Under the pieces are notes generated by a model. That model did no database searches. It saw nothing but the letters and a program-made list of their open reading frames with translations, and was not told the origin of the DNA. DNA of 64,000 nucleotides from Calditrichales bacterium (GTDB taxonomy: Bacteria; Calditrichota; Calditrichia; Calditrichales; J004): NCBI GenBank assembly GCA_965267575.1, contig OZ254086.1:736001-800000 (forward strand), read 5' to 3'. The position numbers were made by a program, and so were the translations under genes. Of the stretch, positions 5,640 to 63,804 are shown one piece after another; the first letter of the stretch is position 1, and each line of letters opens with the position of its first letter.

Positions 5640-5682
5640 GTCCCTGCCCTGATCTCCCAAGTTAAAAGGGATTCTAAAAAAC

Positions 5683-12939: not shown

Positions 12940-12964
12940 TCCAAATCCGTTTTATGCAATGTAA

Positions 12965-13006
12965 AGGGGTGGCGGGGCGCAGCATTTGGCAGCGCCCCGT
13001 TCCCCT
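12965..13006 (-). other. GC-rich intergenic stem-loop between PFOR and rnfC
   Basis: AGGGG..CGGGGCGC...GCGCCCCG..CCCCT inverted repeat; only a weak U-tract on the coding strand. Confidence 0.6.
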
Positions 13007-13023
13007 GCTGAAAGCTAACCCGT

Positions 13024-17958: not shown

Positions 17959-18023
17959 AATAAAACCCTTTTTATATTATATAGATTGTTTCATTTCTTA
18001 ATTTGTTAACTTTTCTTCCCTGG

Positions 18024-28087: not shown

Positions 28088-28112
28088 AACTATACTCCAC
28101 TTCAACGATCTC

Positions 28113-31033: not shown

Positions 31034-32368
31034 TTACTTAACGAGCAGCATTTTGCCGCTAAGACTGATGCCGGAGCCGTGCAGGCGGTAAAAGTAGACA
31101 CCTGACGAAACGTTGTTGCCATTATCGTCCAGGCCATTCCATACAGCTTGGTTGTCGCCGGCCGGTGTGCTGCCGGAAACAAGCGTCCGTACTCTCTTGC
31201 CGCTGATGTCATAGACAGCCAGCGTAATATCGCGTGCTTTGTCCAGTGAGAATTCGATAGTGGTACTGGGGTTGAACGGGTTCGGGTAATTTTTGTCCAG
31301 ACGAACCGTTTGCGGCGCGCGGATCACTTCATCTTCCAGACCGGTAATCAGACCGGTAATGTGAACAATACCTTCAGATTCCGTGGAAACCCAGATTTCG
31401 TTGTCCTTGATCTCCAGATGGGTCAAAACATCCTGCGGGATCTTGTCGGCTGTTGAAGCTGAATCGTATTGCGTAAATGAGCCGTCATCCTGCAGGGCGA
31501 TCAACCCGCCGCCGTTTGTGGCCAGCCACAAGGTGCCGTTTACATCCGCTTCCAGATCGTTGATGTCGTATTGCAGAGCATCGCTCCACTCGGAATCATA
31601 AAAGGTCACGGTACCATTGTTTTCGATTTTTACCAGTTCCAGGTTGCCATTGATCGGCACCCACAGATTGTCGTTGGGATCGATGGTCATGGCGTAGGTC
31701 CAGTCACCTTCGATTTCCGAGATCAGGTTCCAGTCGCCGTTGGTGTCGCGGTAGCTTACACCGTACCAGGTCAAAACCCAAAGCTGACCCTGGGTGTCTT
31801 CACGCAGGTCATAAATCTCGGGGCGGGCATCCTGCTGTGTAAGCGTATAACCCAAATCAGCCATGGACCAGCCTTCCCAGTTTTCGCCATGGTCGCTGCT
31901 TACCCAAACGCGGGCGTTTTCACGATCGTCTTCACGCTGGCTGATGTAGATGTTGCCTTTAGAGTCAGTTTCAACAGTACGTGTGTATTTGTCAAAAGTA
32001 AAATCCACGTAGCCGCTGGTGCCATCGCTCTTTTTGTAAGACACGCCGTAGTGTGTGCACATCCACATAGTGTTTTCGTCATCGACGGCCATGTAGAATA
32101 CGCGGTCCTCCAGATCACTAAGTCCAAGATCGCTCTGCTCCCAGATCGTCCAGCCGGAAAGGTCAGCGGCCAGCGTGGAAACAGTCGCCACACCGGTGGC
32201 AGCGTCTTTTTGTCCGCCAAACCAGATATCGCCGTCAAGATCAAAATCGATGCAGTAAATGGCGTTGTATGGTAATTCGCTGTTATCGTGCGTATACAGC
32301 GTGTATTCCTGCGCCGACGAAAAAGCGGCGAAAAGGAACAAACTTAAAACGGTCACTAAACGGGTCAT
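31034..32368 (-). CDS. Secreted beta-propeller protein with FlgD-Ig C-terminal sorting domain
   Basis: Signal peptide; repeated D..G.(I/L)W...GV blades (two-component-regulator-propeller-like); NYPNPFNPST...WNGLDDNG...SGVYFYRL. Confidence 0.8.
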   Translation of the reverse strand: MTRLVTVLSLFLFAAFSSAQEYTLYTHDNSELPYNAIYCIDFDLDGDIWFGGQKDAATGVATVSTLAADLSGWTIWEQSDLGLSDLEDRVFYMAVDDENTMWMCTHYGVSYKKSDGTSGYVDFTFDKYTRTVETDSKGNIYISQREDDRENARVWVSSDHGENWEGWSMADLGYTLTQQDARPEIYDLREDTQGQLWVLTWYGVSYRDTNGDWNLISEIEGDWTYAMTIDPNDNLWVPINGNLELVKIENNGTVTFYDSEWSDALQYDINDLEADVNGTLWLATNGGGLIALQDDGSFTQYDSASTADKIPQDVLTHLEIKDNEIWVSTESEGIVHITGLITGLEDEVIRAPQTVRLDKNYPNPFNPSTTIEFSLDKARDITLAVYDISGKRVRTLVSGSTPAGDNQAVWNGLDDNGNNVSSGVYFYRLHGSGISLSGKMLLVK

Positions 32369-32393
32369 AATGACTCCTCCTTATTATGAAACT

Positions 32394-33389
32394 TTACAGT
32401 GAAATGCCAAGAGCAAAGCGGTGCACATCACCAAGCACACCGTGTTCGGCAAAAGCGTAATCCAGCCTCGAAGCGGCGCCAAACATGCCAAGCGCCAGTC
32501 CCCCGCCAAAAGAGAATTCTCCGATATCGTAGTTCATTTTGTAGGCGGCGCGCAAAAAGGCCAGGTTGTTAAGGCCGTATTCCGTGGCAAAAGTGATGCG
32601 TTGTTCATTATCGCTGGGCACGTTTACATCGGCCATTACAAGCCAGGTCGATGATTCAAACTCCATCGGTTCAAAGGCCACGCCCATCTGAAAAATCTGT
32701 GGCAGGCGAAACTCCTTGCTCAGCCTCTCAATACGCGGATTGTTGTCCGTGCTGATCGCTTTTTCTTCGGCGATCTTTCTGTCTATATCATCACCGGAGA
32801 AACTGAGTTTACCGGCCACGTTGCGGATGGCCATACCCAGGCGGATGTTGAGAAATTCCGCTTTGTAAACGGAGCCCACGTCAAAAGCAACCTGGTCGGC
32901 TGTCTCATTCCAGATAAATTCCTGCACGTATTTAACCGTAATGCCAAAAGAAAAGCTGGAAGTAAGCGAGCGCGCGTAGGTGGCGCCAATGGCAATGTCG
33001 CCGGCGCTGTAATATTCGCCGGTGCCGTCCTGATCAAATACGGTTGTTATCTCCTCATCATCCATGTAGAACGAGGTTACCGAAAGCCCAATGCTGCCCA
33101 GGTCTTGCCCCAGGTTATGAACGATGCCGCCATAAGCCAGCTTGGTATCCAGGAACCAGTCGGTGTGCGCCAGAAGCAGATCGGTATTCTCTACCTGCGC
33201 GGCCCCGGCAGGATTCCAGTAGAGGGCTTCGGCGCCGTTGGTAAGGGCCGTAAGCGCGCCACCCAGAGAAGCGCCGCGCGGGTCTACGGCAATCTGCAGA
33301 AAGTTTGCGCCGCTTTGCCCCAGGTTACCCTGCGCCAACAGGGGTGTGCCTGCGCAAAAGACGAGTAATAAAATTACAATACGTTTCAT
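32394..33389 (-). CDS. PorV/PorQ-family outer-membrane beta-barrel
   Basis: ANFLQI.VDPR...LGGA, ALYWNPAG, HT.W, FDVG, C-terminal LDYA...LG.VHRF. Confidence 0.82.
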   Translation of the reverse strand: MKRIVILLLVFCAGTPLLAQGNLGQSGANFLQIAVDPRGASLGGALTALTNGAEALYWNPAGAAQVENTDLLLAHTDWFLDTKLAYGGIVHNLGQDLGSIGLSVTSFYMDDEEITTVFDQDGTGEYYSAGDIAIGATYARSLTSSFSFGITVKYVQEFIWNETADQVAFDVGSVYKAEFLNIRLGMAIRNVAGKLSFSGDDIDRKIAEEKAISTDNNPRIERLSKEFRLPQIFQMGVAFEPMEFESSTWLVMADVNVPSDNEQRITFATEYGLNNLAFLRAAYKMNYDIGEFSFGGGLALGMFGAASRLDYAFAEHGVLGDVHRFALGISL

Positions 33390-33407
33390 GGGCTTTTCAC
33401 TCCTGTT

Positions 33408-35288
33408 TTATCGAATTATGGCAAAACGGCCTACTTTTTCGCCGAGGTCCGATTTGACGTGGTAAAAATAGATGCCCGATACAACCGGTCGCTGCTCGGA
33501 CGACAACATGTTCCACTCCAGCCGGCCGGAAGGACCGCTATGCTGCAGCGTCTGTACCAGATCGCCGTCGACCGTGTATATTTTTACGGTGGATTGCGCC
33601 GGCAGGTTGGTAAAGCTGACGTTGCGTACCGGCTCGCCGAAGGCGTAATTGCCCAGGCGCTCTTCGTCCCAGCGCGCCGAGATAACAAAAGGATTGGGCA
33701 CAACGCGTATCTTGTCCATATCCGCTTTGGTTTGCGCAGGATTGCTAACGGGTTGCACGATAGCGGCATTCTTTACGTTATCAATATTATCCAGCGAGCC
33801 AAGCCGGTTGGATTCCTCGATCAGTCCGGCGGCATTCTCGCGGTATGCGGATACATTATAGATGTAGCTGAATCCATTATAAACGGCGTCGGTGTCCTGG
33901 TACTGGTAGGCGTTTTCAACATAAACGGAATCACCGGTATAAGTTGCTGGGATGGTATCGAGCGCTTCCCATTGCTTTAGTGCCACCTGGTCCGTGGTGC
34001 GATAGACAATGTAGCCTTGCAGATCGGGGTCATCCAGTTCCACCTGGTTGTCCCAGGAAAGATCAACGGCGTGGTCATTGGCGGTGGCTTTTACGGTTGG
34101 CGCGCCCACAACCGGAATATTAAAGTCAGGATAGTAATCCCAGAGCTGATCGATATTAGCCATAAGGTCTTCGATGTTGTCACCTACGGAAACAGCGACC
34201 CAGAACTCGGCACGTTCACCGGGCTGGATATCAAAGGGGCCGTTGGCAATATATGCGACCATGGCGCCGCCGACTAGATTGCCGTCTTCATCGGTGATGC
34301 GTGTCGTCTCGGGGTCGTCGTAACGGGTCCCGTTAATCGGATTGTCGCCAAGATGGAAATAATCGCTTACTTCCACATCCGGGTGATCGTGGAACCAGGT
34401 GGTATCCGAGCGCATCAGGTTGTAGCTGAGGCTGTCCCAGAAAGCGGCATTAACGCGCACTTCATCCACGGCCACGTCAATCCAGTGCCAGTCGGTTATA
34501 CCGTTATTATTGGGCGTCTGCAGAAAGGTGATGCCAACCGGGAAGGGGTAATTGTTTTCGTCGTTGATCCATTCGTCGCTGACACCATCGGAATCATAAA
34601 AATAGATCGTTTCACGGTCTTTGTCGAAACCGATGCAATCATCCGCCCATTCGCGGGCGTCGTTGGCGTTTCCGCCCACATCGATGTCAGAGTAGAAGTT
34701 AAAATACATATCTTGCAGCGGCCGGGCAGAGGCGTTTTCGATTTCAAATTTCAAAACGATAAAACGATCCGCTGTCGGAACACCCCAGGCGTAGGTGGTC
34801 TGGTGAACGCGAATGCCCATCAGCGCGTCCTGCTCGCCATTATTGGCATAGCGCCAGTTGGTGGAATCGCTGAAAACACAATAGCTGTCCTGCTGCGACA
34901 AAATGATCGGATTGCCGTTTTCATCCTGCACGGGCCATCCCCATGTGGGCCAGGTGCTGGGATCATCGCTGATGGCGATTTCTGCATTGCCGGCATCGTA
35001 ACCGCCGATGGCGTCAAATTCCTCGTAGCGGCCGTCTGCAGCACTGATGACATTGTAGGGAACGCCGATCATCAGGCATTGGCGGTACATGGCGATATGC
35101 CCGCTGTTGATCGGGTATTCCAGCGTTTTTTCAAATTGCCCGCCATAGGGATAAAACTGGCCGATATTGGTTGTAAACCATCCCAGACGCCCCACGTTAT
35201 GCGTGGCGAAGGCACGGTCTTCAAGCCCGGCATAAGAAAAGGCAACGGAAAGCAAAATTGCCGAAATGAGCGTTTTAAAAAGCTTCAA
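33408..35288 (-). CDS. Secreted acidic protein with FN3-like domain and VPNP-type C-terminal sorting domain
   Basis: Signal peptide (TTG start, AGGAGG RBS); DIDVG...DDCIGFD motif; V.LSW...GY.VYR; IRVVPNPF...IYTVDGDLV...SGIYFYHV. Confidence 0.75.
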   Translation of the reverse strand: MKLFKTLISAILLSVAFSYAGLEDRAFATHNVGRLGWFTTNIGQFYPYGGQFEKTLEYPINSGHIAMYRQCLMIGVPYNVISAADGRYEEFDAIGGYDAGNAEIAISDDPSTWPTWGWPVQDENGNPIILSQQDSYCVFSDSTNWRYANNGEQDALMGIRVHQTTYAWGVPTADRFIVLKFEIENASARPLQDMYFNFYSDIDVGGNANDAREWADDCIGFDKDRETIYFYDSDGVSDEWINDENNYPFPVGITFLQTPNNNGITDWHWIDVAVDEVRVNAAFWDSLSYNLMRSDTTWFHDHPDVEVSDYFHLGDNPINGTRYDDPETTRITDEDGNLVGGAMVAYIANGPFDIQPGERAEFWVAVSVGDNIEDLMANIDQLWDYYPDFNIPVVGAPTVKATANDHAVDLSWDNQVELDDPDLQGYIVYRTTDQVALKQWEALDTIPATYTGDSVYVENAYQYQDTDAVYNGFSYIYNVSAYRENAAGLIEESNRLGSLDNIDNVKNAAIVQPVSNPAQTKADMDKIRVVPNPFVISARWDEERLGNYAFGEPVRNVSFTNLPAQSTVKIYTVDGDLVQTLQHSGPSGRLEWNMLSSEQRPVVSGIYFYHVKSDLGEKVGRFAIIR

Positions 35289-35306
35289 GAGCGCCTCCTT
35301 ATGGAA

Positions 35307-37823
35307 TTAATAGTCAAACCTGAAACCAAGGTAGATTAAACGGGGACTACCGTAGTTAAGCGGGTTGTTGGCCCAGTCGCGCGTACGGCCTTCGATGTAA
35401 TCCGGTTGGCCGGTAAACGGATCGACATAGAGCACGTTTTCGCGGTCGGTCAGATTGAACACCTCGAGATAACCGGTCAGGTCAAAGGCATCCATTTGAA
35501 ATTTGCGATCCAGCTTCAGATCAATAGTCCAGTACTCCGGCAGGCGGCGATTGTTTACTTCGTAAGGTTCCACAATACTGCGCGTGCCTTTGGTATAAGG
35601 CAGGCCGCTCCCATACTGGAAAAGCAATGTGGTGCGTATATTCTCCAGCAAGGCGAAACCGCCAACTTCAGGCCCTTCATTTTCCAGGAAACGGTAGCTG
35701 AGGTAGCCGTTTATGGTATGGCGCTGGTCAAAATCCAGCGGGAAAAATTTCAGGCTCTGGCGGTTGGCCTCTTCCGAGCCAACGCGCTCCAGCGGACCGG
35801 AGCTGCTGCCTTCGGCAACAGAGTAGGTGTAGCTGAGCTCGCCAAACAGGTTTTTTCCGCGCGACTTCTTGATCTGCAGTTCGAGACCGTTGTTGTAGGC
35901 GAAATCCTCATTCACAAGCGCCGTCCATGTTTCCCAGTAAGGCACGCCGTCGCGGGATACATCGCCGGCAAAGAAGGTGCGCGCACCGGTCAGGTTAGTG
36001 ATCTTTTTGCTATAAACGGACACATTAACCAGGTAATCTTCCATAAACTGGTGGCTCAGGCCAAACTCATACGCCACTGTTTTTTCGGGCTTCAGGTTGG
36101 GATTGCCAAAACGGCCGTTTCCGGCGCGCAGATTCATCACGATGTTTTGATCGTAATTGTCATCGCTCAGCGCTTTATAGATAAACTGGTATTCCGGGCG
36201 CTGAAAATAGTGGCCGTAGCCAAAATGAAATACGGTCTTTTCGCTAACCGGGTAACTAATACCAAGCCGCGGACTGAGCTGCGTGTGCGTTTCCGCGGAT
36301 TTAAAGTTTTCCGTATTGTTTTGGAAAGCGTCATAGGGTGATTCCCAGAAATCGGTATTGGGATTGGTGAGATCAAAACGCAATCCGGCGCTTAACAGAA
36401 TATTTGAGAAATTAATTTTATCCTGGATATATGCGGAAAACTCATAAGGCTCTACACTGTAATTATCCAGAGTGTGGTCATCATAATAAGGCGATACGAT
36501 CAGATATTCGTCCAGGTAATGCTGCCTTACTTCAACGCCGGCTTTTATCTCATTATAGTTGTTGGCCTGCCACAAACCATCTGCCTTAATACCAAAAGTA
36601 AGCTGATCCGTCTCTTCAAAACTGCTGACGGTGGCGGAGGTATAAAACTCTTTATTATTGTCCAATGTATAGGCCGGGGTTAAATCTCCGGGTCCGTATT
36701 CGCCGGAATCATAATGGAACGAATTGGCATAGGCCGCAGCCGTATAATACATGTTATCGGACAACGTATGGGTCATTGAAAAATTGACCATGCCCGAGTT
36801 TGTGCGTGGTTCGGGAAAATACTGCTCTTCGATATATTTAAAGCTGTGGCGATAACTTTTGCGCTGGCGGTCGGAGATGTTGCCGGATACGGACAGCTTA
36901 ATGTTATTCATATGCCGCGATGTGATCTTGCCAAATATGTTGTATTGCGTGTTGTAGCCCCAGGGCAAATAGGTATCGCGGTCATCAAAACTGCCGGAAA
37001 CGAAAAAGCCCAGATTGGGGTCGAACAGCGAGCCACTGAAATTGGAGCGCACAATAGTTCTGTTGTAATCGGTACTGGCCTGTTCAAAACCTGCTGCCGT
37101 CGATCTCACATCCACATCAAAACCGAACTCGCCGCGCCCTTCCTGCGTGGTGATGTTGATAATCCCGCTCATGGCGTTACCGTATTCGGCGCTGTACGTA
37201 CCGCTGATCACCTGCATTTCGCTGATGATATCTTTATTAATAATCTCCGTGGAGTTGATTTCGCTGAACAGCGGGTTAACCATAGGCACACCGTCCACGT
37301 AGTAGACAACCTCTCCGGAGCGGCCGCCGCGGAAATGTAACCCTCCGCTGTTTACCACTCCGGGCTGTATGGCCAGTACTTCATTGACACTATTGGCGGG
37401 CACCAGCTCCATCTCCTCGGAAGAGAGGCTGCGCGTGGTGGCTGAAATATCTTTTTCAACAAGCGGGCGCTCGGCCACAACGGTGACCGCTTCACTCTCC
37501 AGAACACCGGAAGAAAGTGCAATATCCACCACGGCAATACGGTTACTGCGCACGCGCACATCGGCGATTGTCTTGCTGACATAGCCCACGTAATCAATTT
37601 GCAGGTCATATGTACCGGGCGGCACCTGGAGAATGACAAAATAGCCTTCGATGTCTGTTGCGGCGCCCTGCTTCAGTTCCTCGATGTAAACATTGGCGCC
37701 GGGCAGCACTTCCCCGGTCTGGGCATCTGTGACCACACCGGATATTTTTCCGAAGTTGCCGGCGTGGGCCGCAACGCAAGCAATTAAAAACCATAAAGCT
37801 GCTCGCAATGAAATCTTTAGCAT
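35307..37823 (-). CDS. TonB-dependent receptor with N-terminal carboxypeptidase-regulatory-like domain
   Basis: GKISG.VTDA.TGE.LPGANV, RGGRSGE..YYVDG plug, SAEYGNAMSG, SPRLG, GNPNLKPE, C-terminal PR...LG.RFDY. Confidence 0.9.
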   Translation of the reverse strand: MLKISLRAALWFLIACVAAHAGNFGKISGVVTDAQTGEVLPGANVYIEELKQGAATDIEGYFVILQVPPGTYDLQIDYVGYVSKTIADVRVRSNRIAVVDIALSSGVLESEAVTVVAERPLVEKDISATTRSLSSEEMELVPANSVNEVLAIQPGVVNSGGLHFRGGRSGEVVYYVDGVPMVNPLFSEINSTEIINKDIISEMQVISGTYSAEYGNAMSGIINITTQEGRGEFGFDVDVRSTAAGFEQASTDYNRTIVRSNFSGSLFDPNLGFFVSGSFDDRDTYLPWGYNTQYNIFGKITSRHMNNIKLSVSGNISDRQRKSYRHSFKYIEEQYFPEPRTNSGMVNFSMTHTLSDNMYYTAAAYANSFHYDSGEYGPGDLTPAYTLDNNKEFYTSATVSSFEETDQLTFGIKADGLWQANNYNEIKAGVEVRQHYLDEYLIVSPYYDDHTLDNYSVEPYEFSAYIQDKINFSNILLSAGLRFDLTNPNTDFWESPYDAFQNNTENFKSAETHTQLSPRLGISYPVSEKTVFHFGYGHYFQRPEYQFIYKALSDDNYDQNIVMNLRAGNGRFGNPNLKPEKTVAYEFGLSHQFMEDYLVNVSVYSKKITNLTGARTFFAGDVSRDGVPYWETWTALVNEDFAYNNGLELQIKKSRGKNLFGELSYTYSVAEGSSSGPLERVGSEEANRQSLKFFPLDFDQRHTINGYLSYRFLENEGPEVGGFALLENIRTTLLFQYGSGLPYTKGTRSIVEPYEVNNRRLPEYWTIDLKLDRKFQMDAFDLTGYLEVFNLTDRENVLYVDPFTGQPDYIEGRTRDWANNPLNYGSPRLIYLGFRFDY

Positions 37824-40109: not shown

Positions 40110-40922
40110 ATGAAGATTTTCTGGTTAATTCTGCTATCTCTCACCCTGCTTTTTTGCACCCAACAACAACCCGAACCCACAAAGGGCAACCTGCTGATTA
40201 TCGGTGGTGGCAAGCGCCCGGATTACGTGATGAAAAAATTCGTTGATCTGGCCGGTGGCCCTGAGGCGCGTATCGCAATTATCCCCACGGCAAGCTCATA
40301 CTACCTGGAATCGGGTAAGCGCTATAAAGAGACATTTCTGGAGCTGGGCGCTGCAGAAGCCGCTTCCTTTAATATTCTTACCACGGAAATTGCCAACAGC
40401 GACAGCATTGCGGAAGCGCTTAAAAGCTACGACGGCTTTTTCTTTGGCGGCGGTAACCAGAACAAGCTGACAGAATTTATGCTGGGCACGCGGGCATTGC
40501 AGATCATTAAAGATGCTCATGCCAATGGCGCAGCGATTGGCGGTACCAGCGCGGGCGCGGCCATTATGAGCGATATCATGATTACCGGTGACGGCAACTG
40601 GGAGATTGCCGTTCGCGACAGCGTTGTGACAACGCAGGGTTTCGGCTTTGTGCAAAACACCGTCATCGATCAGCACTTTTTCGCGCGGCGGCGCTTTAAC
40701 CGGCTGCTGGCCGTATGTGTGCAAAACAGGGTAAACGGCCTGGGCATAGACGAGAGCACGGCCATTTGGGTAAAGCCGGATAATACAATGGAAGTAATTG
40801 GCGAGAGCATTGTCATCGCCCTGGATACGCAGCAGGCGCGCTGGCCGGAAAAAAGCGATTCGCTGTTAACGGCCCGAGATCTCAGGCTGGGCATATACAA
40901 ACACGGCGACACACTTCCCTAA
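40110..40922 (+). CDS. Cyanophycinase (peptidase S51), probable lipoprotein
   Basis: Lipobox-like LLFC; IIGGG, IPTAS, GGGNQ, GGTSAGA (Ser), DQHF..RRRFNRL (His), GIDESTA (Glu). Confidence 0.88.
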   Translation: MKIFWLILLSLTLLFCTQQQPEPTKGNLLIIGGGKRPDYVMKKFVDLAGGPEARIAIIPTASSYYLESGKRYKETFLELGAAEAASFNILTTEIANSDSIAEALKSYDGFFFGGGNQNKLTEFMLGTRALQIIKDAHANGAAIGGTSAGAAIMSDIMITGDGNWEIAVRDSVVTTQGFGFVQNTVIDQHFFARRRFNRLLAVCVQNRVNGLGIDESTAIWVKPDNTMEVIGESIVIALDTQQARWPEKSDSLLTARDLRLGIYKHGDTLP

Positions 40923-52106: not shown

Positions 52107-53165
52107 ATGATAACAACTATTTTGGGACTGCTGACTTTATTTCTTCTTTTAGTTACGCTGTTGCCGCTATCCCGAGCGACATGGTGGTGGGTGCGCATCT
52201 GGGATTTTCCGAGGCTGCAGCTATCCCTGTTGCTTTTTGCCGTACTTATCGCGGGCTTATTATTACTTGATCTCTCCGAGACCGTAAGTCTGCTCATTCT
52301 CATCACGTCGGCGATTTGTTTTATCTATCAGCTCTGGTGGATCGTGCCTTACACACAACTCTTTCCGGCGGAAGTAAAAAAAGATGCCGGTGTCAATGCT
52401 GGTCCGTCCATAAGCATAATGGCGGCCAACGTGCTCAGGGAAAACCGCAATGTGTCCGCCCTGATTGATATTACATTAAGAAATGAGCCCGATATTCTGG
52501 TTACAATGGAATCAGACCAAAGGTGGGAAGAGCAACTGCAAATGCTGGAAAAAGAGTACCCCTACACAGTAAAGTGCCCGTTGGACAACCGCTATGGCAT
52601 GCACGTTTATTCGAGGCTCAAGCTGAATAACAGCACAATTAACTTTCTGGTGGAGCCCGATATACCTTCCGTACATACCGAAGTGACGCTTCAATTGGGC
52701 GAGGTGATTCGCATGCATTTTCTGCACCCTACGCCACCGAGCCCCACTGAGAAGGAAGAATCCGATGAACGCGACGCGGAATTGCTGTTGGTGGGTAAAA
52801 GTATCGCCAATACGGATGAACCCGTTATTGTAACCGGTGACCTGAATGATGTAGCATGGTCCGAAACGACGCGTCTATTCCGTAAAATTAGCGGCCTGCT
52901 CGATCCGCGCGTGGGTCGCGGCATGTACAACACTTTTCACGCCGGTTACTGGTTTTTACGCTGGCCGCTGGATCACCTTTTTCACAGCAGCCACTTCAAA
53001 CTTCGGCGCATTGAGCGTCTGCCGGCCTTTGGCTCAGACCATTTCCCGATCCTTGTGGAGCTTCTGTACTGTGGCAAAGCTTTACGCGATCAAAACGGTC
53101 TGGAAGCTGAAAAAGAAGACAAACAGCTGGCTGATAAAAAGATAAAGGGATACAAAACCAAATAG
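52107..53165 (+). CDS. Membrane-anchored endonuclease/exonuclease/phosphatase-family protein
   Basis: N-terminal TMs, NVL, YGM, HP.PP, GDLNDVAWS, DPR.GRG, PLDH, GSDHFP. Confidence 0.85.
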   Translation: MITTILGLLTLFLLLVTLLPLSRATWWWVRIWDFPRLQLSLLLFAVLIAGLLLLDLSETVSLLILITSAICFIYQLWWIVPYTQLFPAEVKKDAGVNAGPSISIMAANVLRENRNVSALIDITLRNEPDILVTMESDQRWEEQLQMLEKEYPYTVKCPLDNRYGMHVYSRLKLNNSTINFLVEPDIPSVHTEVTLQLGEVIRMHFLHPTPPSPTEKEESDERDAELLLVGKSIANTDEPVIVTGDLNDVAWSETTRLFRKISGLLDPRVGRGMYNTFHAGYWFLRWPLDHLFHSSHFKLRRIERLPAFGSDHFPILVELLYCGKALRDQNGLEAEKEDKQLADKKIKGYKTK

Positions 53166-53172
53166 AGCTAAC

Positions 53173-53200
53173 AAAAAAGGGCGCCATAAAGACGCCCTTT
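53173..53200. terminator. Intrinsic terminator (U6 tract on - strand; may also serve the EEP gene)
   Basis: AAAAAAGGGCG-CCATAAAGA-CGCCCTTT. Confidence 0.8.
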
Positions 53201-53272
53201 CCTTCTTGCCTGCCTGCTTCCCTGCACCAAGCTTTTCATCCGTGATAAATCGCTGCTTCCCTGCCGCGTTTA
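53173..53272 (-). ncRNA. Candidate CsrB/RsmY-like CsrA-sequestering small RNA
   Basis: On the - strand three hairpins with AGGGAA/ACGGAU/AGGGAA loops, a fourth AAGGA, then terminator AAAGGGCG...CGCCCUUUUUU; 5' end not defined. Confidence 0.55.
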
Positions 53273-53402
53273 TTTTTCATACACCTTGATTTTCGATTGT
53301 GGCAGTGGCAACTTGACGCAATTATTGATTAGCTCGGAAATCTGACCAACGTTTTCTCGAATATGAAACCAACTGCCTGTTCAACACGCCTACGGAGCCG
53401 TC

Positions 53403-54650
53403 ATGAAACGTACCATTCTTCTGTCCGCCCTATTGATCTTAATTTCAACATGTACGCCGCCTAAGCAGTTGGAGTCGCAAAACATGATCGAGCAACTGCT
53501 GCAATCGCACCCGCAATGGTTCAACAAGGTTCTGGAAAACAAGGAGCTTTACGAGCCTCAAATTATTTACACGCAAATCGATCGTGACGAAAACAACCGG
53601 CCGCATTTTACGACATACACTTATAATGTAGACGCACAACGCTATTTCTATCCGGCCAGTACTGTGAAGTTTCCGGCCGCCCTGCTGGCGCTGGAGAAAT
53701 TGAACGGACTGAAAATCGATGGTCTTAATCGTGAAACCCCGCTGATTATAGACAGCAGCGCCAGCCAAAGCGGCGTTAATACTGACGAAAGTGCGCCGGA
53801 CAGCCTGCCGACCATAGGGCACTATATCCGCAAGATTTTTCTCGTAAGCGATAATGACGCTTTCAACCGTCTTTATGAGTTCCTTGGGCAAAAAACAATC
53901 AACAAAAATTTGTGGGAAAAAGGTTATAAAAAGTTGCGCATTAACCATCGTCTTTCCATCGCGATGAGCGCCGAAGAAAATCGCCACACCAACGCCTTCA
54001 CTTTTTTTGACGGCGATATGGCAATTTACCGGCAGGAAGCGCAATACAACAAAGAGACCTTTCCGCTGGACCTGCCCAACCTGCAGCGCGGCAAGGGGTA
54101 CTGGAACGGCGAGCGCGTGGTTGAGGAACCATTCGACTTTTCCGGTAAGAATTACTTTGCGCTGCAAGAGCAGCAAGCTATGCTGCGCGCCATTATTTTC
54201 CCCGATGCCGTGCCGGAGGGACAACGCTTTAATTTAACACCAGAAGACTACCGCTTTCTTTATAAAACCATGAGCATGCTGCCGCGTGAGTCGCAGTATC
54301 CGTCTTATGACCCTGAAAAATACTGGGACAGCTATGTGAAGTTTGTTATGTTTGGGGACAATAAGGAGCGGATGTCACATCAAATCCGCGTCTTCAACAA
54401 GGTGGGGGACGCCTACGGTTTTCTGACCGATAACGCATATGTGGCCGATTTTGAGAACAATGTGGAGTTTTTTCTCAGCGTAACCATCCACGTAAACGAA
54501 AACGGGATTTACAACGACAATAATTACGCTTACGACGAGGTGGGTTTTCCCTTTATTGCCAACCTTGGCCGGGTGATCCACGATTATGAGTTAGAACGCC
54601 AACGGCCTTATAAAGCGGATTTGTCGCGATTGAAACAAGCTATCGAGTAA
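53403..54650 (+). CDS. Serine hydrolase, class A beta-lactamase/PBP-like lipoprotein
   Basis: Lipobox-like ISTC; PASTVK (SxxK), SDN, NKVG motifs. Confidence 0.75.
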   Translation: MKRTILLSALLILISTCTPPKQLESQNMIEQLLQSHPQWFNKVLENKELYEPQIIYTQIDRDENNRPHFTTYTYNVDAQRYFYPASTVKFPAALLALEKLNGLKIDGLNRETPLIIDSSASQSGVNTDESAPDSLPTIGHYIRKIFLVSDNDAFNRLYEFLGQKTINKNLWEKGYKKLRINHRLSIAMSAEENRHTNAFTFFDGDMAIYRQEAQYNKETFPLDLPNLQRGKGYWNGERVVEEPFDFSGKNYFALQEQQAMLRAIIFPDAVPEGQRFNLTPEDYRFLYKTMSMLPRESQYPSYDPEKYWDSYVKFVMFGDNKERMSHQIRVFNKVGDAYGFLTDNAYVADFENNVEFFLSVTIHVNENGIYNDNNYAYDEVGFPFIANLGRVIHDYELERQRPYKADLSRLKQAIE

Positions 54651-55771: not shown

Positions 55772-56047
55772 TTAGAGGTTTTCCACGTCACCGGCTATCT
55801 TAAAGTCGGCGTCGGTAAGTCCGCCCGCGTCATGCGAACTAAAACTAAGTTTCACCTGGTTATAAACATTAAACAATTCCGGATGGTGGTTATGCTTTTC
55901 CGCCAAAAGCGCCACGCGTCCGATAAATCCAAAGGCCTCGTTGAAGTCGGCAAATTTCCATTCTTTGGTAATCGCGTCACCGTCTCGGCTCCAGCCGTTC
56001 AGTTTTTCCAGTTTTTGCTTGATCGCATCATCGGAAAGTTTTGTCAT
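55772..56047 (-). CDS. phhB: Pterin-4-alpha-carbinolamine dehydratase
   Basis: [26 protein letters not shown]. Confidence 0.92.
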
Positions 56048-56956: not shown

Positions 56957-59782
56957 TTATTTTTCCTGAATCAAAGCGGTTTTAAATATTTTTTGACCGA
57001 CATTATTTAGTGTTACGTGAACCACATAAATACCGCTTGCTACCTTTCTATTTGCCTCATTACGCAAATCCCAATCTAAATAGGGTTGGGCTGAATCATG
57101 GGTCATACTGCGCACTAAACGTCCGGCCACATCGAATATGCGGATGACGGCACCCTGCGGAAGGTGAATAAAACGCACAGCACCATTATACCCCTGCCCC
57201 GGAAAGTATGGATTCGGAACCGCTTTGACCGATGCAAGCTGACTGCGCAGATCCGGTAAAAGGTCGGTCTCATAAAAACGGGATGTGGAAAAATTAAACA
57301 CATCCAGATCACTCAACGGGTAATTTGGCGTTACGGTCATTTCAAACGCACCCTCTTTATAAGCAAAAGTAGAATCACCGCGTGCCCGCAGTTGCAAAAA
57401 CAGGGTCAGGTAGGCGTCACTGATTCCGCCCGATGTATCGGGATAGGCGTCTTCTTTTTTATAATCGCTGTAAGTAACTATAATGGCTGTCTGATTATTT
57501 TTTATAAGCGCCGGTTCATCGCGTACGGAGTTAAAAAGTATATTGAGACGCCGTGGGGCATCAGGTTTACTGATATCATAAGCGCGTATAAAGGAATTAA
57601 CCTCCCCGTAAAATCTCCTAAAGTCAAGTGAACCTGAGCGGAACCAATAGGCAACGGAGGTGTCCGCCGTATCAAAGTAGATCTTTACCGGCACATGTTT
57701 TTCCTTTGCCAGAACTGACAGGTCCTGAAAAACATGTTTGGCTAACAAAGCCCCGTTATTGGGATAGATAAGTTCGTTTGGCTCCAGCCATACGGTACCA
57801 CTTTTATCTATTTGCGCTATGCTGTCCGGTACATCCACGATGCGGAACTGCATACCGTCAATAATGGGAAATGTGTTCAGGGTATCCTCTCTGAAACTGC
57901 GAACTGTAAGGCTGTCTCTTAAGATCATTCCGTCCTTTTCGATCCGCCAGTAACGGGCATTATCAAAAAACGAAACAGTATAGTTCTCCAGCGGAATGTC
58001 AGCCGGTCTGAGCGGCAAAATATTTAAGCTTCCCTGACCTGCGCCACGGGTATGCCGCGCGCGGAAACCGGTATACTCGTTCTTCACATCGCTGCCCGGT
58101 ACAACCGTTATCGAGGTTGCTTCGCTGTATTGAAAATCAAAAGGTCGCGGCAAAAACCAGTCGTCATGTATGGTGCGGGTCAGGTCGTACTCCTGAAGAG
58201 TGGCGTGATTGATGCTGAAGCTTTTAACAGCGAAGTGATATTTGCTGAAATTGTTAAGCGGTTCACCACTAAAAGCATCATGGTTGATTTGATGGCGAAC
58301 AACCGGCGCATTACCTATATGGCGTGAAAGATTGTTTTTGCCGGACCAGTAAAGCTGCTGCTCACCGTTGTCACCGGGTCCGAAAATAATACGGTAAAGG
58401 TTGTTTAGATCGTAGCGCGCGATAAGGCGGCTTTGTTCGGGGTTTCCGGCTTCGGCATCGGCATGGGCCAGTTGGTAGAGCGCGAAGCCTTCAAACAGGT
58501 AGTGGTTGCCCAACACATCTTCTTCTTCATAGTCATAACAGTTCGAAAGGTCGATCATAAGGTCAACGCTTTTGTCGCCGGGAATCGCTTCCAGTTTGGC
58601 AGCGGGCGGCGGGTCTACCCGTTTAAATCCTCCACGGATAGCTTGTAAAGCTTTGGCGGCATTTTCTTTCATTACGCTGACGCTGTTTAGGGGACTATTG
58701 CCTTGTCCATAAACAATAGCTCCATAAAACTCAAAGCTTTCTCCTGAATCAATGGTTTTTGCATTAATCGTTGTAATAAATACTTTGTTATGATAAATAG
58801 TGTCCAGCCATCCTGTGCCGGAAATCGGGTCACCACTAAAAATATAAACAGGATTTGTCTGTTCATCACCACCAGACCCTGTAATAAGCGGGTCAATTCG
58901 GTATCCCAGGTCAGTTGTTCCATGTTGTAAGTTACGCATAAGGTACTCATACGCCGGATCACATAACGGGTTGAGGTGGCAGGTTAGAAAGTACATATTA
59001 ACAGAAAAGAGCTTTCCGAGAAGAGGATCAGTTACAATGCAGCCAATGGAAGGAGGCTTATCTTTCAAATAATCATCGGGCCCGTCATTATACGAAAAAC
59101 CGAGATGCAACAGGGTATCGCTTCCAATCAAATCATCAACATAATCACCTATGTCCGGATCTACGACCATCGAAATCAAAGTGGAGTCTATTGGAGAATC
59201 TGATTTGTTAGTTACTTTATATTTATAAAACAAGATATTTGTGAGTGGTCCATATAAATACATCCAACATGTTTGTTGAACTTCCAACGGAACCGGAACG
59301 TAATTTCCCGGATCTTCCGCATTGTAATATATCATCCATTTCTGTATATCTCCGAATACTTCAGGCTTGTCAATATCAGGATCGTAAACCTCGTTGTTAT
59401 CAACATCCTGGTAAGGAGCGCCCAACTCAACGGCATCTGACCAGTCTTTATAAGGTTCACTGCCTTGCCGATCAATGCTGCTTAAGCTATATATTCTAAT
59501 GCGCGGATCACCCGGATCAAGATTATACTTTCCCGGAACGGTCCCCTCGAATCTCTTTGAAGGAAAAAGGAGCAAAGCTTTTGTTTTATTATCATTAATT
59601 CCTGTTATCATCAAGCCTCCATTATAGACAAGATTATTATCCAATGTGTGGAAAAAACCGTCAGCATAGAGGCGGAATTTAAGACTATCGTTTGATATAA
59701 TAGTCGACATAACATTTCTTTGGGCCCAAACAACAGTTACAAACAAAAGACATAGTAACAATGACTTGATAAAGGTCTTCAT
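56957..59782 (-). CDS. Secreted array protein 3: variable N-domain + conserved Ig/FN3-like module + insert + VPNPY-type sorting domain
   Basis: Start at ATG 59782 (MKTFIKSLLL signal peptide); DPDIGDY.DDLIGSD motif; AVPNPY...IRIFDVAGR...WDLRN...SGIY. Confidence 0.8.
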   Translation of the reverse strand: MKTFIKSLLLCLLFVTVVWAQRNVMSTIISNDSLKFRLYADGFFHTLDNNLVYNGGLMITGINDNKTKALLLFPSKRFEGTVPGKYNLDPGDPRIRIYSLSSIDRQGSEPYKDWSDAVELGAPYQDVDNNEVYDPDIDKPEVFGDIQKWMIYYNAEDPGNYVPVPLEVQQTCWMYLYGPLTNILFYKYKVTNKSDSPIDSTLISMVVDPDIGDYVDDLIGSDTLLHLGFSYNDGPDDYLKDKPPSIGCIVTDPLLGKLFSVNMYFLTCHLNPLCDPAYEYLMRNLQHGTTDLGYRIDPLITGSGGDEQTNPVYIFSGDPISGTGWLDTIYHNKVFITTINAKTIDSGESFEFYGAIVYGQGNSPLNSVSVMKENAAKALQAIRGGFKRVDPPPAAKLEAIPGDKSVDLMIDLSNCYDYEEEDVLGNHYLFEGFALYQLAHADAEAGNPEQSRLIARYDLNNLYRIIFGPGDNGEQQLYWSGKNNLSRHIGNAPVVRHQINHDAFSGEPLNNFSKYHFAVKSFSINHATLQEYDLTRTIHDDWFLPRPFDFQYSEATSITVVPGSDVKNEYTGFRARHTRGAGQGSLNILPLRPADIPLENYTVSFFDNARYWRIEKDGMILRDSLTVRSFREDTLNTFPIIDGMQFRIVDVPDSIAQIDKSGTVWLEPNELIYPNNGALLAKHVFQDLSVLAKEKHVPVKIYFDTADTSVAYWFRSGSLDFRRFYGEVNSFIRAYDISKPDAPRRLNILFNSVRDEPALIKNNQTAIIVTYSDYKKEDAYPDTSGGISDAYLTLFLQLRARGDSTFAYKEGAFEMTVTPNYPLSDLDVFNFSTSRFYETDLLPDLRSQLASVKAVPNPYFPGQGYNGAVRFIHLPQGAVIRIFDVAGRLVRSMTHDSAQPYLDWDLRNEANRKVASGIYVVHVTLNNVGQKIFKTALIQEK

Positions 59783-60651
59783 AACAGCCTCATTTCTTTT
59801 CGCCAACGACGGCCAGCTTTAGAATCCGGCTGCCGCTCGCGGATTTTGAAACGTGGATAAGATATATGCCGCCGGCTACCCTTCTGCCGGCATCATTACG
59901 CAAATCCCAGTCCCAAAAAGGTTGCTCCAGGGTGTGAGTCATGCTCCGTACCGGGCGACCGGCCACATCAAATATGCGGATGACGGCACCCTGCGGAAGA
60001 TGAATAAAACGCACAGCACCATTATACCCCTGCCCGGGGAAGTATGGATTCGGTACGGCTTCTACACGATCCAGTACCGCTTCGGTGTCATCACCTGCAA
60101 GCACTGCAACTTGAACCGCCACTGGGCTAAATTGAATATCAAAGGAGCGAGGAGCGTACCAGTCATTTTCAATTTCATCCGTTTGGTCAAAGGGCTGCAA
60201 CGCAGCATAGTTGAGACTAAACGTGCGAACGGTAAAATGATAGCGGCTGAAGTTGTTTATGGGTTTACCGCTGAACGCATCCATGTTAACGGTATGGGTT
60301 ACAATGTTGCTGTCTGCGCTAAGTCCACCGATGTTGTTTTGGCCGTCCCAAACCTGTTCCGATATACCTACATCATTCAGGCGATATATGTCTTTGTAGG
60401 TATTATCAAGATCGTAGCGCGCGATAAGGCGGCTTTGTTCGGGGTCCCCAACTTCAGCATCGGCATGGGCCAGTTGGTAGAGCGCGAAGCCTTCAAACAG
60501 GTAGTGGTTTCCCAACACATCTTCTTCTTCATAGTCATAACAGTCCGAAAGGTCGATCATAAGGTCAACGCTTTTGTCGCCGGGAATAGCCTCCAGCCCG
60601 GCAGCGGGCGGCGGGTCTGCCCGTTTAAAGCCGCCACGGATGGCCTGCAAG
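59771..60651. repeat. Direct repeat copy A (~880 bp constant cassette)
   Basis: Matches 61764-62644 at offset 1993; by eye only 5 substitutions, all within ~60120-60200. Confidence 0.92.
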
Positions 60652-61775
60652 GCCTTGGCGGCATTTTCTCTCATTAAGCTGACGCTGTTAAGAGGACTAT
60701 TTCCCTTGCCAAGGACCAATGCCGCGTAAAATTCAAAGCTTTCCTCAGGTAGCAAAGCTTTGGCAAAAACAGAGGCTAACATTCTTTTGTCATTCGCGAT
60801 ATCATCCAACCAGCCACTGCCTGATAAGGGATCTCCGCTAAATAAATATAATGGATTTGTGTGTTCATCTGCCCCGACACCAAAACTTGTAGGGTCAAAG
60901 GTCTCACCAAATCGGGTCCGCCCCGACTGAAGGTTTCTGATAAGATCATCATAATAATTGTAGTGAAGAGCAAAATAGAAAAATGTTGCAGAAAAAAGTC
61001 TTTGCAGGTCTGCAGACATTACAATACAGCCCAATGCAGGGGGAGCACCACCATATTGAGAATCGTCACCAGAATTATAAACATACTGCATATTCAGCAG
61101 GGTGTCGCTGCCCAGCAGATCATCCCCATAATCACCAATGTCCGGATCCATTGCGAGCGAGAATAAAGCTGAATCAATAGGCGCGTCGCTTTTATTGGTA
61201 ACGATATATTTAAAAAACAAGACATCCCTCAGTTTTCCAAAACGATACATCCAATTAAATTGCTGCACTTCGAGCGCCAATGGATTGTTTACCCTCTGTT
61301 CACTTTCATCGGTGCTATAAACCATCCACGTTTGTAAGTCGCCAAACAAGAGCGGTAGATCAATATCAGGATCGTAAATGCCGTCATCATTGAAATCGTG
61401 ATAAGGAGCCCCTAATAAAACGGCGTCTCTCCATGCTTCATAGCTTGCGGTTCCACTCCCTTCAGTACTATATGCTACATATATTCCGGCTGGGGGATCA
61501 TCTTGCGAAGTTTCATATTTCCCTGGTTTGACGCCATTTAATCGGAGGCCGGGATTATATTCAAAAAAGGCCTTGACCTCGTTACCCTGCAGGCCAGTAA
61601 TCATTATACCACCGTAAAACAGCGGATTATTCTCAACCGATTCATATGACCCATTGGAATGCAATATATATGCAATACTATCGTTAGAGATGGTCCACTT
61701 TTCATTAACGAACTGTGAGCAAACAATAGTTACAAAAAAGAGACTTAGTATCAGTGATCTCTCAAAGGTCTTCAT
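59790..61775 (-). CDS. Secreted array protein 2: variable N-domain + constant C-terminal cassette
   Basis: Start at ATG 61775 (MKTFERSLIL); DPDIGDYGDDLLGSD; C-terminal ~285 aa identical to protein 1 except one D/N. Confidence 0.82.
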   Translation of the reverse strand: MKTFERSLILSLFFVTIVCSQFVNEKWTISNDSIAYILHSNGSYESVENNPLFYGGIMITGLQGNEVKAFFEYNPGLRLNGVKPGKYETSQDDPPAGIYVAYSTEGSGTASYEAWRDAVLLGAPYHDFNDDGIYDPDIDLPLLFGDLQTWMVYSTDESEQRVNNPLALEVQQFNWMYRFGKLRDVLFFKYIVTNKSDAPIDSALFSLAMDPDIGDYGDDLLGSDTLLNMQYVYNSGDDSQYGGAPPALGCIVMSADLQRLFSATFFYFALHYNYYDDLIRNLQSGRTRFGETFDPTSFGVGADEHTNPLYLFSGDPLSGSGWLDDIANDKRMLASVFAKALLPEESFEFYAALVLGKGNSPLNSVSLMRENAAKALQAIRGGFKRADPPPAAGLEAIPGDKSVDLMIDLSDCYDYEEEDVLGNHYLFEGFALYQLAHADAEVGDPEQSRLIARYDLDNTYKDIYRLNDVGISEQVWDGQNNIGGLSADSNIVTHTVNMDAFSGKPINNFSRYHFTVRTFSLNYAALQPFDQTDEIENDWYAPRSFDIQFSPVAVQVAVLAGDDTEAVLDRVEAVPNPYFPGQGYNGAVRFIHLPQGAVIRIFDVAGRPVRSMTHTLEQPFWDWDLRNDAGRRVAGGIYLIHVSKSASGSRILKLAVVGEKK

Positions 61776-62644
61776 AACAGCCTCATTTCTTTTCGCCAAC
61801 GACGGCCAGCTTTAGAATCCGGCTGCCGCTCGCGGATTTTGAAACGTGGATAAGATATATGCCGCCGGCTACCCTTCTGCCGGCATCATTACGCAAATCC
61901 CAGTCCCAAAAAGGTTGCTCCAGGGTGTGAGTCATGCTCCGTACCGGGCGACCGGCCACATCAAATATGCGGATGACGGCACCCTGCGGAAGATGAATAA
62001 AACGCACAGCACCATTATACCCCTGCCCGGGGAAGTATGGATTCGGTACGGCTTCTACACGATCCAGTACCGCTTCGGTGTCATCACCTGCAAGCACTGC
62101 AACTTGAACCGCCACCGGGCTAAACTGAATATCAAAGGAGCGAGGAGCGTACCAGTCATTTTCAATTTCATCCGTTTGGTTGAAGGGCTGCAGCGCAGCA
62201 TAGTTGAGACTAAACGTGCGAACGGTAAAATGATAGCGGCTGAAGTTGTTTATGGGTTTACCGCTGAACGCATCCATGTTAACGGTATGGGTTACAATGT
62301 TGCTGTCTGCGCTAAGTCCACCGATGTTGTTTTGGCCGTCCCAAACCTGTTCCGATATACCTACATCATTCAGGCGATATATGTCTTTGTAGGTATTATC
62401 AAGATCGTAGCGCGCGATAAGGCGGCTTTGTTCGGGGTCCCCAACTTCAGCATCGGCATGGGCCAGTTGGTAGAGCGCGAAGCCTTCAAACAGGTAGTGG
62501 TTTCCCAACACATCTTCTTCTTCATAGTCATAACAGTCCGAAAGGTCGATCATAAGGTCAACGCTTTTGTCGCCGGGAATAGCCTCCAGCCCGGCAGCGG
62601 GCGGCGGGTCTGCCCGTTTAAAGCCGCCACGGATGGCCTGCAAG
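61764..62644. repeat. Direct repeat copy B (~880 bp constant cassette)
   Basis: Near-identical to 59771-60651; includes the stop codon, spacer and first codons (MKTF) of the next gene. Confidence 0.92.
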
Positions 62645-63804
62645 ACTTTGGCTGCATTTTCTTTCATTACGCTGACGCTGTTTAGGGCGCTATTGCCCTT
62701 GCCGTAAACTATGGCACCATAAATAGTATGGGAAGCCCCGGGAGCCAGATCGAATTTCTGTAGCGTGTGAGTATATTTCTTATCCTCTTGACTTTTGTCC
62801 AGCCAGCCATGCTGCGATAGGGGGTCGCCACTAAAAATGTAACGAGCATTACTCGTCGAATCCGCGCCTTTCCCAAATTTAAATTTTTGAGGATTTATAT
62901 ATGTATAGTCAGCACTGATTTTTGCTTGCTGATAAAATCTGAAAGGCATATACCAATGGAAGTGAGGAAGAGGCGGAAAAAGAGCCGGAGCGAAGGCTTC
63001 TAATTGCAAATCCCGGTTATCTGCGATAACCGTACCCAATGCATAAGGCGGACCTTCTAAATCTTTATCAGCGCCATTATTATAAGAATAACCGAGATTT
63101 AACAATGTATCACAACCAACAAGGTCATCGCTGTAATGGCCTAGGTCTATATCCATATTGAAAGAGACCAAAATATCCTCAACCTTCGACACTGTTGGAT
63201 TCGAAATAACTTGCCTAATAAAAATGATATCTTGTAATGCAAAAAAATAGCGCCATAGAGTTTGTTGTATTTCAAGAATCATTGAAGGCCCGTAACCGTC
63301 ACCACCTGAGGATTTTAGCCGCAGCGAATCGTTGAATACACACCAGAACATTTCATCACCATACATATCCGGCAAATCTTCGTCCGGCTCATAACTGCCG
63401 TTCATGTTTCGATCCACAAAAGGTGCACCCTGAGCAACCGCATTTTGATATTCATTGTAGGCCTTACTGTTAGCGGAATCATAAACAGAGACCAGGTAGA
63501 AGCGATTTGTTGAATCAGCGGGATTTGAATAAAGCTGTCCGGGCTTTGCCTGATTGCCCAAAAGCCAACCAATGGCAGCTTGAACAACTTTACCCTCGCG
63601 AATACCGCTATAACCAATTCCGCCTCTATAAACTGGGTTGTAGTATCCTTCAGCTATCTCCCCATCGTTTCTAAATTGGATGGTAATAATACTATCCAAA
63701 CTCAAAGAAATATGGTCATAATGATAGTTATCGTGGTGGTCGGACTTCTGCTGACCATAGACAAAGCATAAAACAGAAAACAAAACAATAAGAATCGTTT
63801 TCAT
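61783..63804 (-). CDS. Secreted array protein 1: variable N-domain + constant C-terminal cassette
   Basis: Signal peptide MKTILIVLFSVLCFVYG; DIDLGHYSDDLVGCD; VPNPY-type CTD. Confidence 0.82.
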   Translation of the reverse strand: MKTILIVLFSVLCFVYGQQKSDHHDNYHYDHISLSLDSIITIQFRNDGEIAEGYYNPVYRGGIGYSGIREGKVVQAAIGWLLGNQAKPGQLYSNPADSTNRFYLVSVYDSANSKAYNEYQNAVAQGAPFVDRNMNGSYEPDEDLPDMYGDEMFWCVFNDSLRLKSSGGDGYGPSMILEIQQTLWRYFFALQDIIFIRQVISNPTVSKVEDILVSFNMDIDLGHYSDDLVGCDTLLNLGYSYNNGADKDLEGPPYALGTVIADNRDLQLEAFAPALFPPLPHFHWYMPFRFYQQAKISADYTYINPQKFKFGKGADSTSNARYIFSGDPLSQHGWLDKSQEDKKYTHTLQKFDLAPGASHTIYGAIVYGKGNSALNSVSVMKENAAKVLQAIRGGFKRADPPPAAGLEAIPGDKSVDLMIDLSDCYDYEEEDVLGNHYLFEGFALYQLAHADAEVGDPEQSRLIARYDLDNTYKDIYRLNDVGISEQVWDGQNNIGGLSADSNIVTHTVNMDAFSGKPINNFSRYHFTVRTFSLNYAALQPFNQTDEIENDWYAPRSFDIQFSPVAVQVAVLAGDDTEAVLDRVEAVPNPYFPGQGYNGAVRFIHLPQGAVIRIFDVAGRPVRSMTHTLEQPFWDWDLRNDAGRRVAGGIYLIHVSKSASGSRILKLAVVGEKK

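Follow-up and report, generated by a model that had tools for sequence, protein, structure and literature searches.

A candidate Csr/Rsm-like sponge RNA in an intergenic gap of a Calditrichales bacterium

The 64,000-nucleotide stretch analysed here (the window) contains a gap between two plus-strand genes, one encoding a protein of the endonuclease/exonuclease/phosphatase (EEP) family and the other a serine hydrolase resembling class A beta-lactamases (Table I). The initial annotation, which drew attention to the gap, had placed both genes on the plus strand, and this is borne out by the open reading frames and their Pfam matches. An RNA read from the minus strand of the gap would, if transcribed, converge on the EEP-family gene and point away from the serine-hydrolase gene. 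The two flanking proteins have one close relative each (87% and 90% identity; P0002, P0122), encoded on the same 102-kb contig; beyond that relative, homologs of both proteins are at most 62% identical. The best named homologs of the EEP-family protein are found in Massilia and Telluria (Oxalobacteraceae; approximately 60% identity), not in the FCB group, and this pattern, as far as protein similarity can tell, points to a patchy distribution or an old horizontal transfer of the gene. Joint horizontal arrival of the candidate RNA and the EEP-family gene was considered and rejected, since such a transfer would be too ancient for a non-coding element to have stayed intact. Upstream of the serine-hydrolase gene, and outside the candidate RNA, lies an imperfect direct repeat (53333-53373; 18 nt, 72% identical, 23-nt spacing), which may be an operator or promoter element.

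The minus strand of the gap carries three stem-loops, a fourth GGA motif and an intrinsic terminator. All of the segments quoted in the initial annotation are present on this strand: CGCGGC-AGGGAA-GCAGCG (53268-53251), UUUAUC-ACGGAU-GAAAA (53249-53233), GCUUGGUGC-AGGGAA-GCAGGCAGGC (53232-53208), AAGGAA (53204-53199), and a hairpin with UUUUUU after it (53203-53173). The stem of stem-loop 1 contains an internal G.A mismatch. Stem-loop 2 has two alternative forms, either an ACGGAU hexaloop closed by a C-G pair or a triloop in which the GA is paired, the latter being the minimum free energy (MFE) form. Consecutive GGAs across all four motifs are spaced by 19, 20, and 19 nt. Stem-loops 1 and 3 each contain an exact copy of the 12-mer GCAGGGAAGCAG, which has exactly two copies in the window against 0.26 expected (at most one mismatch); a degenerate third copy, 83% identical, abuts copy 2 at 53213-53202.

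Table I. Features of the locus, in window coordinates
Feature	Position	Strand	Details
EEP-family gene, upstream of the gap	52107..53165	+	PF03372, E 9e-37
Intergenic gap holding the candidate RNA	53166..53402	.	237 nt, between two plus-strand ORFs with Pfam support
Candidate small RNA core, three stem-loops and terminator	53170..53270	-	101 nt as folded
Intrinsic terminator	53173..53203	-	13-bp stem, loop UUUAU, U6 at 53178-53173; -19.7 kcal/mol
Fourth motif, AAGGAA	53199..53204	-	Adjoins 5' side of terminator G+C core; read from sequence
Stem-loop 3, AGGGAA hexaloop on a UGC/GCA stem within an outer GCUUG/CAGGC stem	53208..53232	-	In MFE and centroid structures
Repeat module GCAGGGAAGCAG, copy 2	53214..53225	-	Exact 12-mer
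Stem-loop 2, A/U-rich stem around CACGGAUG	53235..53249	-	Two alternative loop forms
Stem-loop 1, CGC.GC / AGGGAA hexaloop / GC.GCG	53251..53268	-	C-G closing pair; in MFE and centroid structures
Repeat module GCAGGGAAGCAG, copy 1	53253..53264	-	Exact 12-mer; repeat family D1
Promoter-like site, TGGTCA-16-AATAAT (only one in the gap)	53321..53348	-	Consensus scan, 9/12
Class-A-beta-lactamase-like serine hydrolase gene, downstream of the gap	53403..54650	+	PF13354, E 1.5e-13

Folding of the 101-nt core is biased toward the minus strand, which reaches -36.6 kcal/mol (z -3.68; 0 of 200 shuffles as stable), with the MFE structure accounting for 28% of the ensemble, whereas the plus strand of the same stretch reaches -22.6 kcal/mol (z -1.77). 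With the terminator left out, the body of the RNA folds at -16.9 kcal/mol (z -2.19) on the minus strand versus -10.8 kcal/mol (z -0.96) on the plus strand. The GGA of stem-loop 1 (53260-53258) is unpaired with a probability of 1.0 in a local hairpin of -4.8 to -5.9 kcal/mol, and that of stem-loop 3 (53221-53219) with a probability of 0.99. Stem-loop 2 is weak, with a local MFE of only -1.6 kcal/mol; its MFE form pairs the GA of the GGA (53241-53239), for which the mean probability of being unpaired is 0.40 when 101 nt are folded, rising to 0.63 when 145 nt are folded. In AAGGAA, the GGA is paired to the U tail (probability unpaired 0.05-0.06), making its accessibility doubtful. Two of the four GGAs are thus confidently unpaired. 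The series of GGA-hexaloop hairpins described in the initial annotation is predicted to be open at loops 1 and 3, but hairpin 2 is marginal and the fourth GGA is paired.

The terminator stem has a 7-bp G+C core that is extended by A-U and G.U pairs. The hairpin is more stable on the minus strand than on the plus strand (-19.7 vs -11.8 kcal/mol), where a C.A mismatch stands in place of the U.G pair of the minus strand. An unbroken U6 tract is found on the minus strand only; the plus-strand tail, UUUCCUUCUU, has 7 U in 10. A consensus terminator scan does not include the hairpin at 53173-53203 among its listed sites, presumably because the stem, once extended, takes in the T run. With its start 11 nt past the stop codon of the EEP-family gene (53165), and with a U-rich plus-strand tail, the hairpin may well serve both strands, so that the EEP-family gene may be terminated by it as well. 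The earlier statement that no coding sequence explains a minus-strand terminator was therefore too strong.

Use of the promoter-like site at 53348-53321 would give a predicted start near 53314 and an RNA of approximately 145 nt. As promoter evidence this is weak, the consensus scan having returned three sites in 800 nt against 0.8 expected, and the scan revealed no convincing minus-strand promoter in the gap. It found no promoter-like site on the plus strand of the gap. A search of 53270-53420 for a GacA/UvrY-type upstream box, using a consensus with up to three mismatches, found none; the same search gave 26 matches elsewhere in the window.

The statistics used to describe the rarity of the motif cluster were picked after the sequence had been seen, and the figures that follow are for that reason descriptive. 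The raw GGA count is ordinary, at least four GGAs occurring in 6.9% of 100-nt segments of the minus strand and 5.8% of those of the plus strand. A lenient test, which accepts every loop of 4-8 nt that contains GGA and has three closing base pairs, passes two of the four candidate GGAs, and is uninformative since it passes almost half of all GGAs in the window (481/1003 minus, 409/922 plus). The 8-mer form CANGGANG, which combines the six bases of an ANGGAN loop with the C-G pair that closes it, is found 40 times in the 64-kb window, both strands counted. Three of these matches, on the minus strand at 53263, 53244, and 53224, fall within 47 nt in the candidate; they constitute the only triple in the window that falls within 60 nt, and also supply its only pairs within that distance. 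When the window was shuffled 300 times with dinucleotides preserved, one shuffle gave such a triple. Unrelated bacterial DNA, comprising 1,210,452 bases from the 120 loci listed by the module-pair scan described below with the selected motif masked, contained 776 motifs and two triples, both in G+C-rich actinobacterial stretches and neither with a T run in the next 90 nt. The AGGA/ARGGA motif of Kulkarni et al. reaches four per 60 nt in the candidate, which is the window maximum and is common to one other site, inside an RND-pump coding region.

At gathering thresholds, Rfam has no match in the whole window. Below threshold, the PrrB/RsmZ family (RF00166) matches 53171-53268 of the minus strand over model positions 1-133, scoring 23.2 bits where the gathering score is 44. 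The E value is 0.0014-0.0026 when 300-550 nt are searched and 0.3 for the whole window, the lowest of seven sub-threshold matches in the window. The candidate locus is the only one in the window with a match to the Csr/Rsm clan, and two lower-scoring matches of the same clan overlap there. Other terminator-bearing Rfam families score 24-29 bits elsewhere in the window, which indicates that part of the PrrB/RsmZ score is just the terminator. The sub-threshold matches to Thr_leader (both strands) and the rimP leader, at 1560-1640 and 5650-5747, are most simply explained as intrinsic terminators between genes. With about half the gathering score, the candidate is not a member of RF00166, and the relationship is one of resemblance only. 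The covariance search suggested in the initial annotation thus returned an RsmZ-clan match over the full length of the candidate, but one below the gathering score and with a window E value of 0.3.

The resemblance extends to overall anatomy. PrrB/RsmZ, RsmY, and RsmX of Pseudomonas are approximately 100-130 nt long and, like the candidate, have several short hairpins with GGA in the loops. The candidate further shares with PrrB/RsmZ a GGA just 5' of a Rho-independent terminator, a free-standing intergenic locus and an end-to-end alignment to the model. In contrast to PrrB/RsmZ, one hairpin is missing (33 model positions are represented by 2 nt), the gap has no match to a GacA/UvrY box, and the host belongs to the FCB group and not to the Gammaproteobacteria. 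Repeated GGA hairpin modules that titrate CsrA dimers, the principle proposed here, are also the principle of CsrB/CsrC of Escherichia coli, and the two 12-mers and degenerate copy of the candidate recall the repeated elements of those RNAs. However, CsrB/CsrC are much larger and have many more sites than the four of the candidate, CsrB being described as 360 nt long with 16 motif occurrences in single-stranded regions (PMC1488887). No CsrB/CsrC match was listed in the window by the permissive Rfam search. As a rule, a genome has two or three copies of Csr/Rsm RNAs.

Five sequence criteria for sRNAs that regulate CsrA have been published (Kulkarni et al. 2006, PMC1488887). With regard to the first three, the candidate is intergenic (i), in a gap of 237 nt; has a high concentration of AGGA/ARGGA (ii), with four in 60 nt in addition to the unique CANGGANG triple; and has a Rho-independent terminator on the same strand (iii), with a 13-bp stem and U6. 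Repeated GGAs in loops or single-stranded parts of the predicted structure (iv) are seen in part, two of the four being unpaired with a probability of approximately 1.0, one with 0.40-0.63 and one with 0.05-0.06. A conserved upstream regulatory site (v) was not found by the GacA/UvrY-box search of the gap. Criteria (i)-(iv) have been reported to yield candidates that lack a conserved upstream site in Bacillus subtilis and Helicobacter pylori, two organisms that have no UvrY (PMC1488887). The present candidate is like these in having no conserved upstream site, but those genomes, unlike the present one, are known to encode CsrA. We know of no later confirmation of the Bacillus and Helicobacter candidates, and this tempers our confidence in the one described here.

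Relatives of the RNA were sought by scanning DNA of a genome collection for a pattern of two 10-nt modules 15-45 nt apart, which gave at least 120 loci. Among the matches listed, the pattern lies inside a stop-free frame of at least 100 codons at 110 of 120 loci, and the 15 listed loci that were inspected are mostly tandem or simple repeats. None of the matches listed (at least 120 loci) combines three modules with a terminator, none comes from the source genome, and the module-pair matches are chance matches. For 12 of the listed loci there were no Rfam matches at gathering level; for three of those, E-value mode gave four matches, none of them to the Csr/Rsm clan. A blastn search with 53170-53320 found no match in plasmid and phage collections. 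Non-coding arrays of GC-AGGGAA-GC hairpin modules were observed in three gammaproteobacterial sequences, from a Teredinibacter sp. (L082:300-420), a Thiohalomonas MAG (L107:180-300) and a further gammaproteobacterial MAG (L048:10000-10080). All three arrays are without an Rfam match at gathering level, and the Teredinibacter and Thiohalomonas arrays are without a Csr/Rsm-clan match at E values up to 1. These arrays may be uncatalogued Csr/Rsm RNAs.

Type IX secretion is restricted to the FCB group. Among the products of the window are a PorV-family protein, which scores 180 bits where the cut-off is 90, and several proteins that carry sorting domains for type IX secretion. Proteins resembling this PorV protein occur most often in Ignavibacteriota and Balneolota, and the best named relative of RnfC is from a Caldithrix-labelled MAG (71% identity). 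On the strength of the type IX secretion genes and of the protein resemblance to Caldithrix, Ignavibacteriota, and Balneolota, the FCB-group origin proposed in the initial annotation holds. The lineage is thinly sampled.

Several other features of the window were recorded. On the minus strand at 8646-18890, rnfA, E, G, D, and C (8646-12939) are split from rnfB (18024-18890) by a 1644-codon ORF at 13024-17958. A cluster at 31034-37823, consisting of the PorV-family gene, a gene with a PorU/PorZ-like C-terminal match, a 626-aa ORF and a TonB-dependent receptor gene, appears to be a module for type IX secretion cargo or an outer-membrane module. Two cyanophycinase-like genes are present, at 26438-28237 and 40110-40922, and a type IX secretion sorting domain on one of them implies a secreted form. 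At 56957-63804 there are three consecutive minus-strand ORFs (949, 669, and 673 aa) with type IX secretion C-terminal tails, the first two of which have an identical 22 nt upstream of their predicted starts, suggesting tandem paralogues or mis-called starts.

The CsrA SELEX consensus is RUACARGGAUGU, mostly displayed in six-nt loops closed by the C-G pair of AC/GU on stems of up to four contiguous pairs, and a single CsrA dimer spans a pair of sites separated by 10-63 nt, best at about 18 nt, as described in a 2020 review (PMC7652899). The three predicted loops of the candidate fit this site, and their GGA spacing of 19-20 nt suits dimer bridging. Neither csrA nor fliW was found among the 50 large and 22 small ORFs of the 64-kb window, which is part of a contig of 4,732,520 bp; Pfam searches of the 22 small or intergenic ORFs gave a single match, a pterin dehydratase at 55772-56047. 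According to a survey of CsrA, the gene is present in approximately 30% of GTDB genomes, few of them in Bacteroidota (PMC13443453). Its supplementary table includes CsrA homologs from Ignavibacterium album, Melioribacter roseus, and Kryptonium, and also from two Zixibacteria, Chitinivibrio, and Gemmatirosa. All of them belong to FCB lineages outside Bacteroidia, as does the inferred host lineage. No Calditrichota rows were found in the 555-protein library of that work, a sample rather than a census, and a literature search on CsrA in Calditrichota returned nothing useful.

The FCB-group CsrA proteins in the same table are 75-88 residues long (PMC13443453), a length that probably reflects the long C-terminus that FliW binds. 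FliW, in B. subtilis and Campylobacter jejuni, is the known CsrA antagonist outside Gammaproteobacteria, and whether FliW and sRNAs act jointly in any species was given as undetermined in the 2020 review (PMC7652899). Partner switching between FliW and CsrA involves a protein antagonist that acts allosterically, whereas the candidate would be an RNA competitor. Shine-Dalgarno-like motifs (GGAG, GAGG, or AGGA) precede 23 of 50 genes in the window, against a background of 8.9%. The organism uses Shine-Dalgarno sequences, then, and occlusion of that site by CsrA is feasible. CsrA decoy RNAs have been characterised in Gammaproteobacteria; to our knowledge, no CsrA-sponge RNA is known in an FCB-type bacterial group.

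Our preferred reading of the minus-strand element is a Csr/Rsm-like sponge RNA, to which we assign a probability of roughly 40%. The Csr/Rsm sponge proposed in the initial annotation has in its favour the anatomy of the element, its strand bias and its rarity within the window; against it are the sub-threshold Rfam score and the lack of an upstream box. Such an RNA would be transcribed from the minus strand, non-coding, and approximately 100 nt long, or at most approximately 145 nt if its 5' end were set by the site at 53348-53321, and would end at the U6 terminator. It would display three C-ANGGAN-G loops 19-20 nt apart and a fourth AAGGAA motif. Provided that the genome encodes a CsrA-family protein and that the protein binds these loops, the RNA could act as its decoy, each dimer bridging two neighbouring GGAs, so that one RNA would hold approximately two dimers. 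Capture of CsrA would then release from repression those mRNAs that the protein would otherwise bind over their Shine-Dalgarno regions.

A somewhat less probable reading is that no minus-strand RNA is made, and that the hairpin is the terminator of the EEP-family gene, possibly a bidirectional one. The GGA cluster would then reflect chance or repeats that function at the DNA level, with a transcription factor binding CTGCTTCCCTGC, which is present twice and once more in degenerate form, and the remainder of the gap would be a promoter, regulatory DNA or the 5' leader of the serine-hydrolase gene. The position of the hairpin 11 nt past the stop at 53165 and the 7 U in 10 of the plus-strand tail are in keeping with this, but only the minus strand has a perfect U tract, and the plus strand has a hairpin less stable by 8 kcal/mol and a fold that is unremarkable as a whole (z -0.96 to -1.77). 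Direct repeats of a 12-mer 39 bp apart, with a third copy at 83%, would fit protein-binding DNA as well as RNA modules. However, the repeats sit exactly in the predicted C-G-closed hexaloops, and CACGGAUG, which is not part of the repeat, has the same form. The missing strong minus-strand promoter, the ordinary raw density of GGA and the sub-threshold Rfam match also favour a terminator over an sRNA, yet the gap offers no promoter-like site on the plus strand either.

We consider it distinctly unlikely that the locus encodes a genuine minus-strand sRNA with another role, such as base-pairing of its G/A-rich loops with UCCC-containing targets or partnership with a different RNA-binding protein, in a genome possibly without CsrA. 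The case for an independent, structured and terminated transcript does not depend on CsrA, which is absent from approximately 70% of genomes (PMC13443453), and the loops are exposed and identical, which is common for seed regions. Against such a role, loop and closing pair match the CsrA site at three places with the spacing for dimer bridging, and nothing in the window suggests a target or an alternative protein. Very improbable is a short gene, namely a 14-codon minus-strand ORF (53280-53236) that runs from ATG to TGA ahead of the terminator. The sequence does contain this ORF, with AAGGUG just upstream, but the Shine-Dalgarno-like hexamer, ending 1 nt ahead of the ATG, is too near to it, and the ORF was set aside as a gene over this start context. 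It also ends inside hairpin 2, leaving 60 nt of structured RNA unexplained, and is too short for family evidence. Neither of the two further minus-strand ORFs that lie in the gap or next to it (53390-53542, 52996-53187) gave a Pfam match.

Beyond the sponge itself, a wider proposal is that a deep-branching FCB bacterium, placed near Calditrichota, Ignavibacteriota and Balneolota, controls a long-tailed, FliW-type CsrA by a dedicated decoy RNA that would have arisen independently of the GacA/UvrY-driven RNAs of Gammaproteobacteria. We regard this as unlikely on present evidence. If true, it would be the first RNA antagonist of an ancestral-type CsrA, with FliW and an sRNA acting on the same protein. 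A confirmed sponge would provide a concrete locus for the question of whether the two ever act together. Should the sponge not be confirmed, the locus would serve as a warning that hairpins dense in GGA may turn up next to a terminator in the absence of CsrA. If real, the sponge would be a Csr-type decoy outside Gammaproteobacteria without GacA/UvrY control, and confirmation would mean that decoy RNAs can evolve without the BarA/UvrY (GacS/GacA) circuit. Table 1 of PMC9029176 gives 16 annotated sRNAs for the FCB group and one for Calditrichaeota; a confirmed sponge would be among the few sRNAs known in this part of the tree, and would extend RNA-based control of CsrA to a distant lineage.
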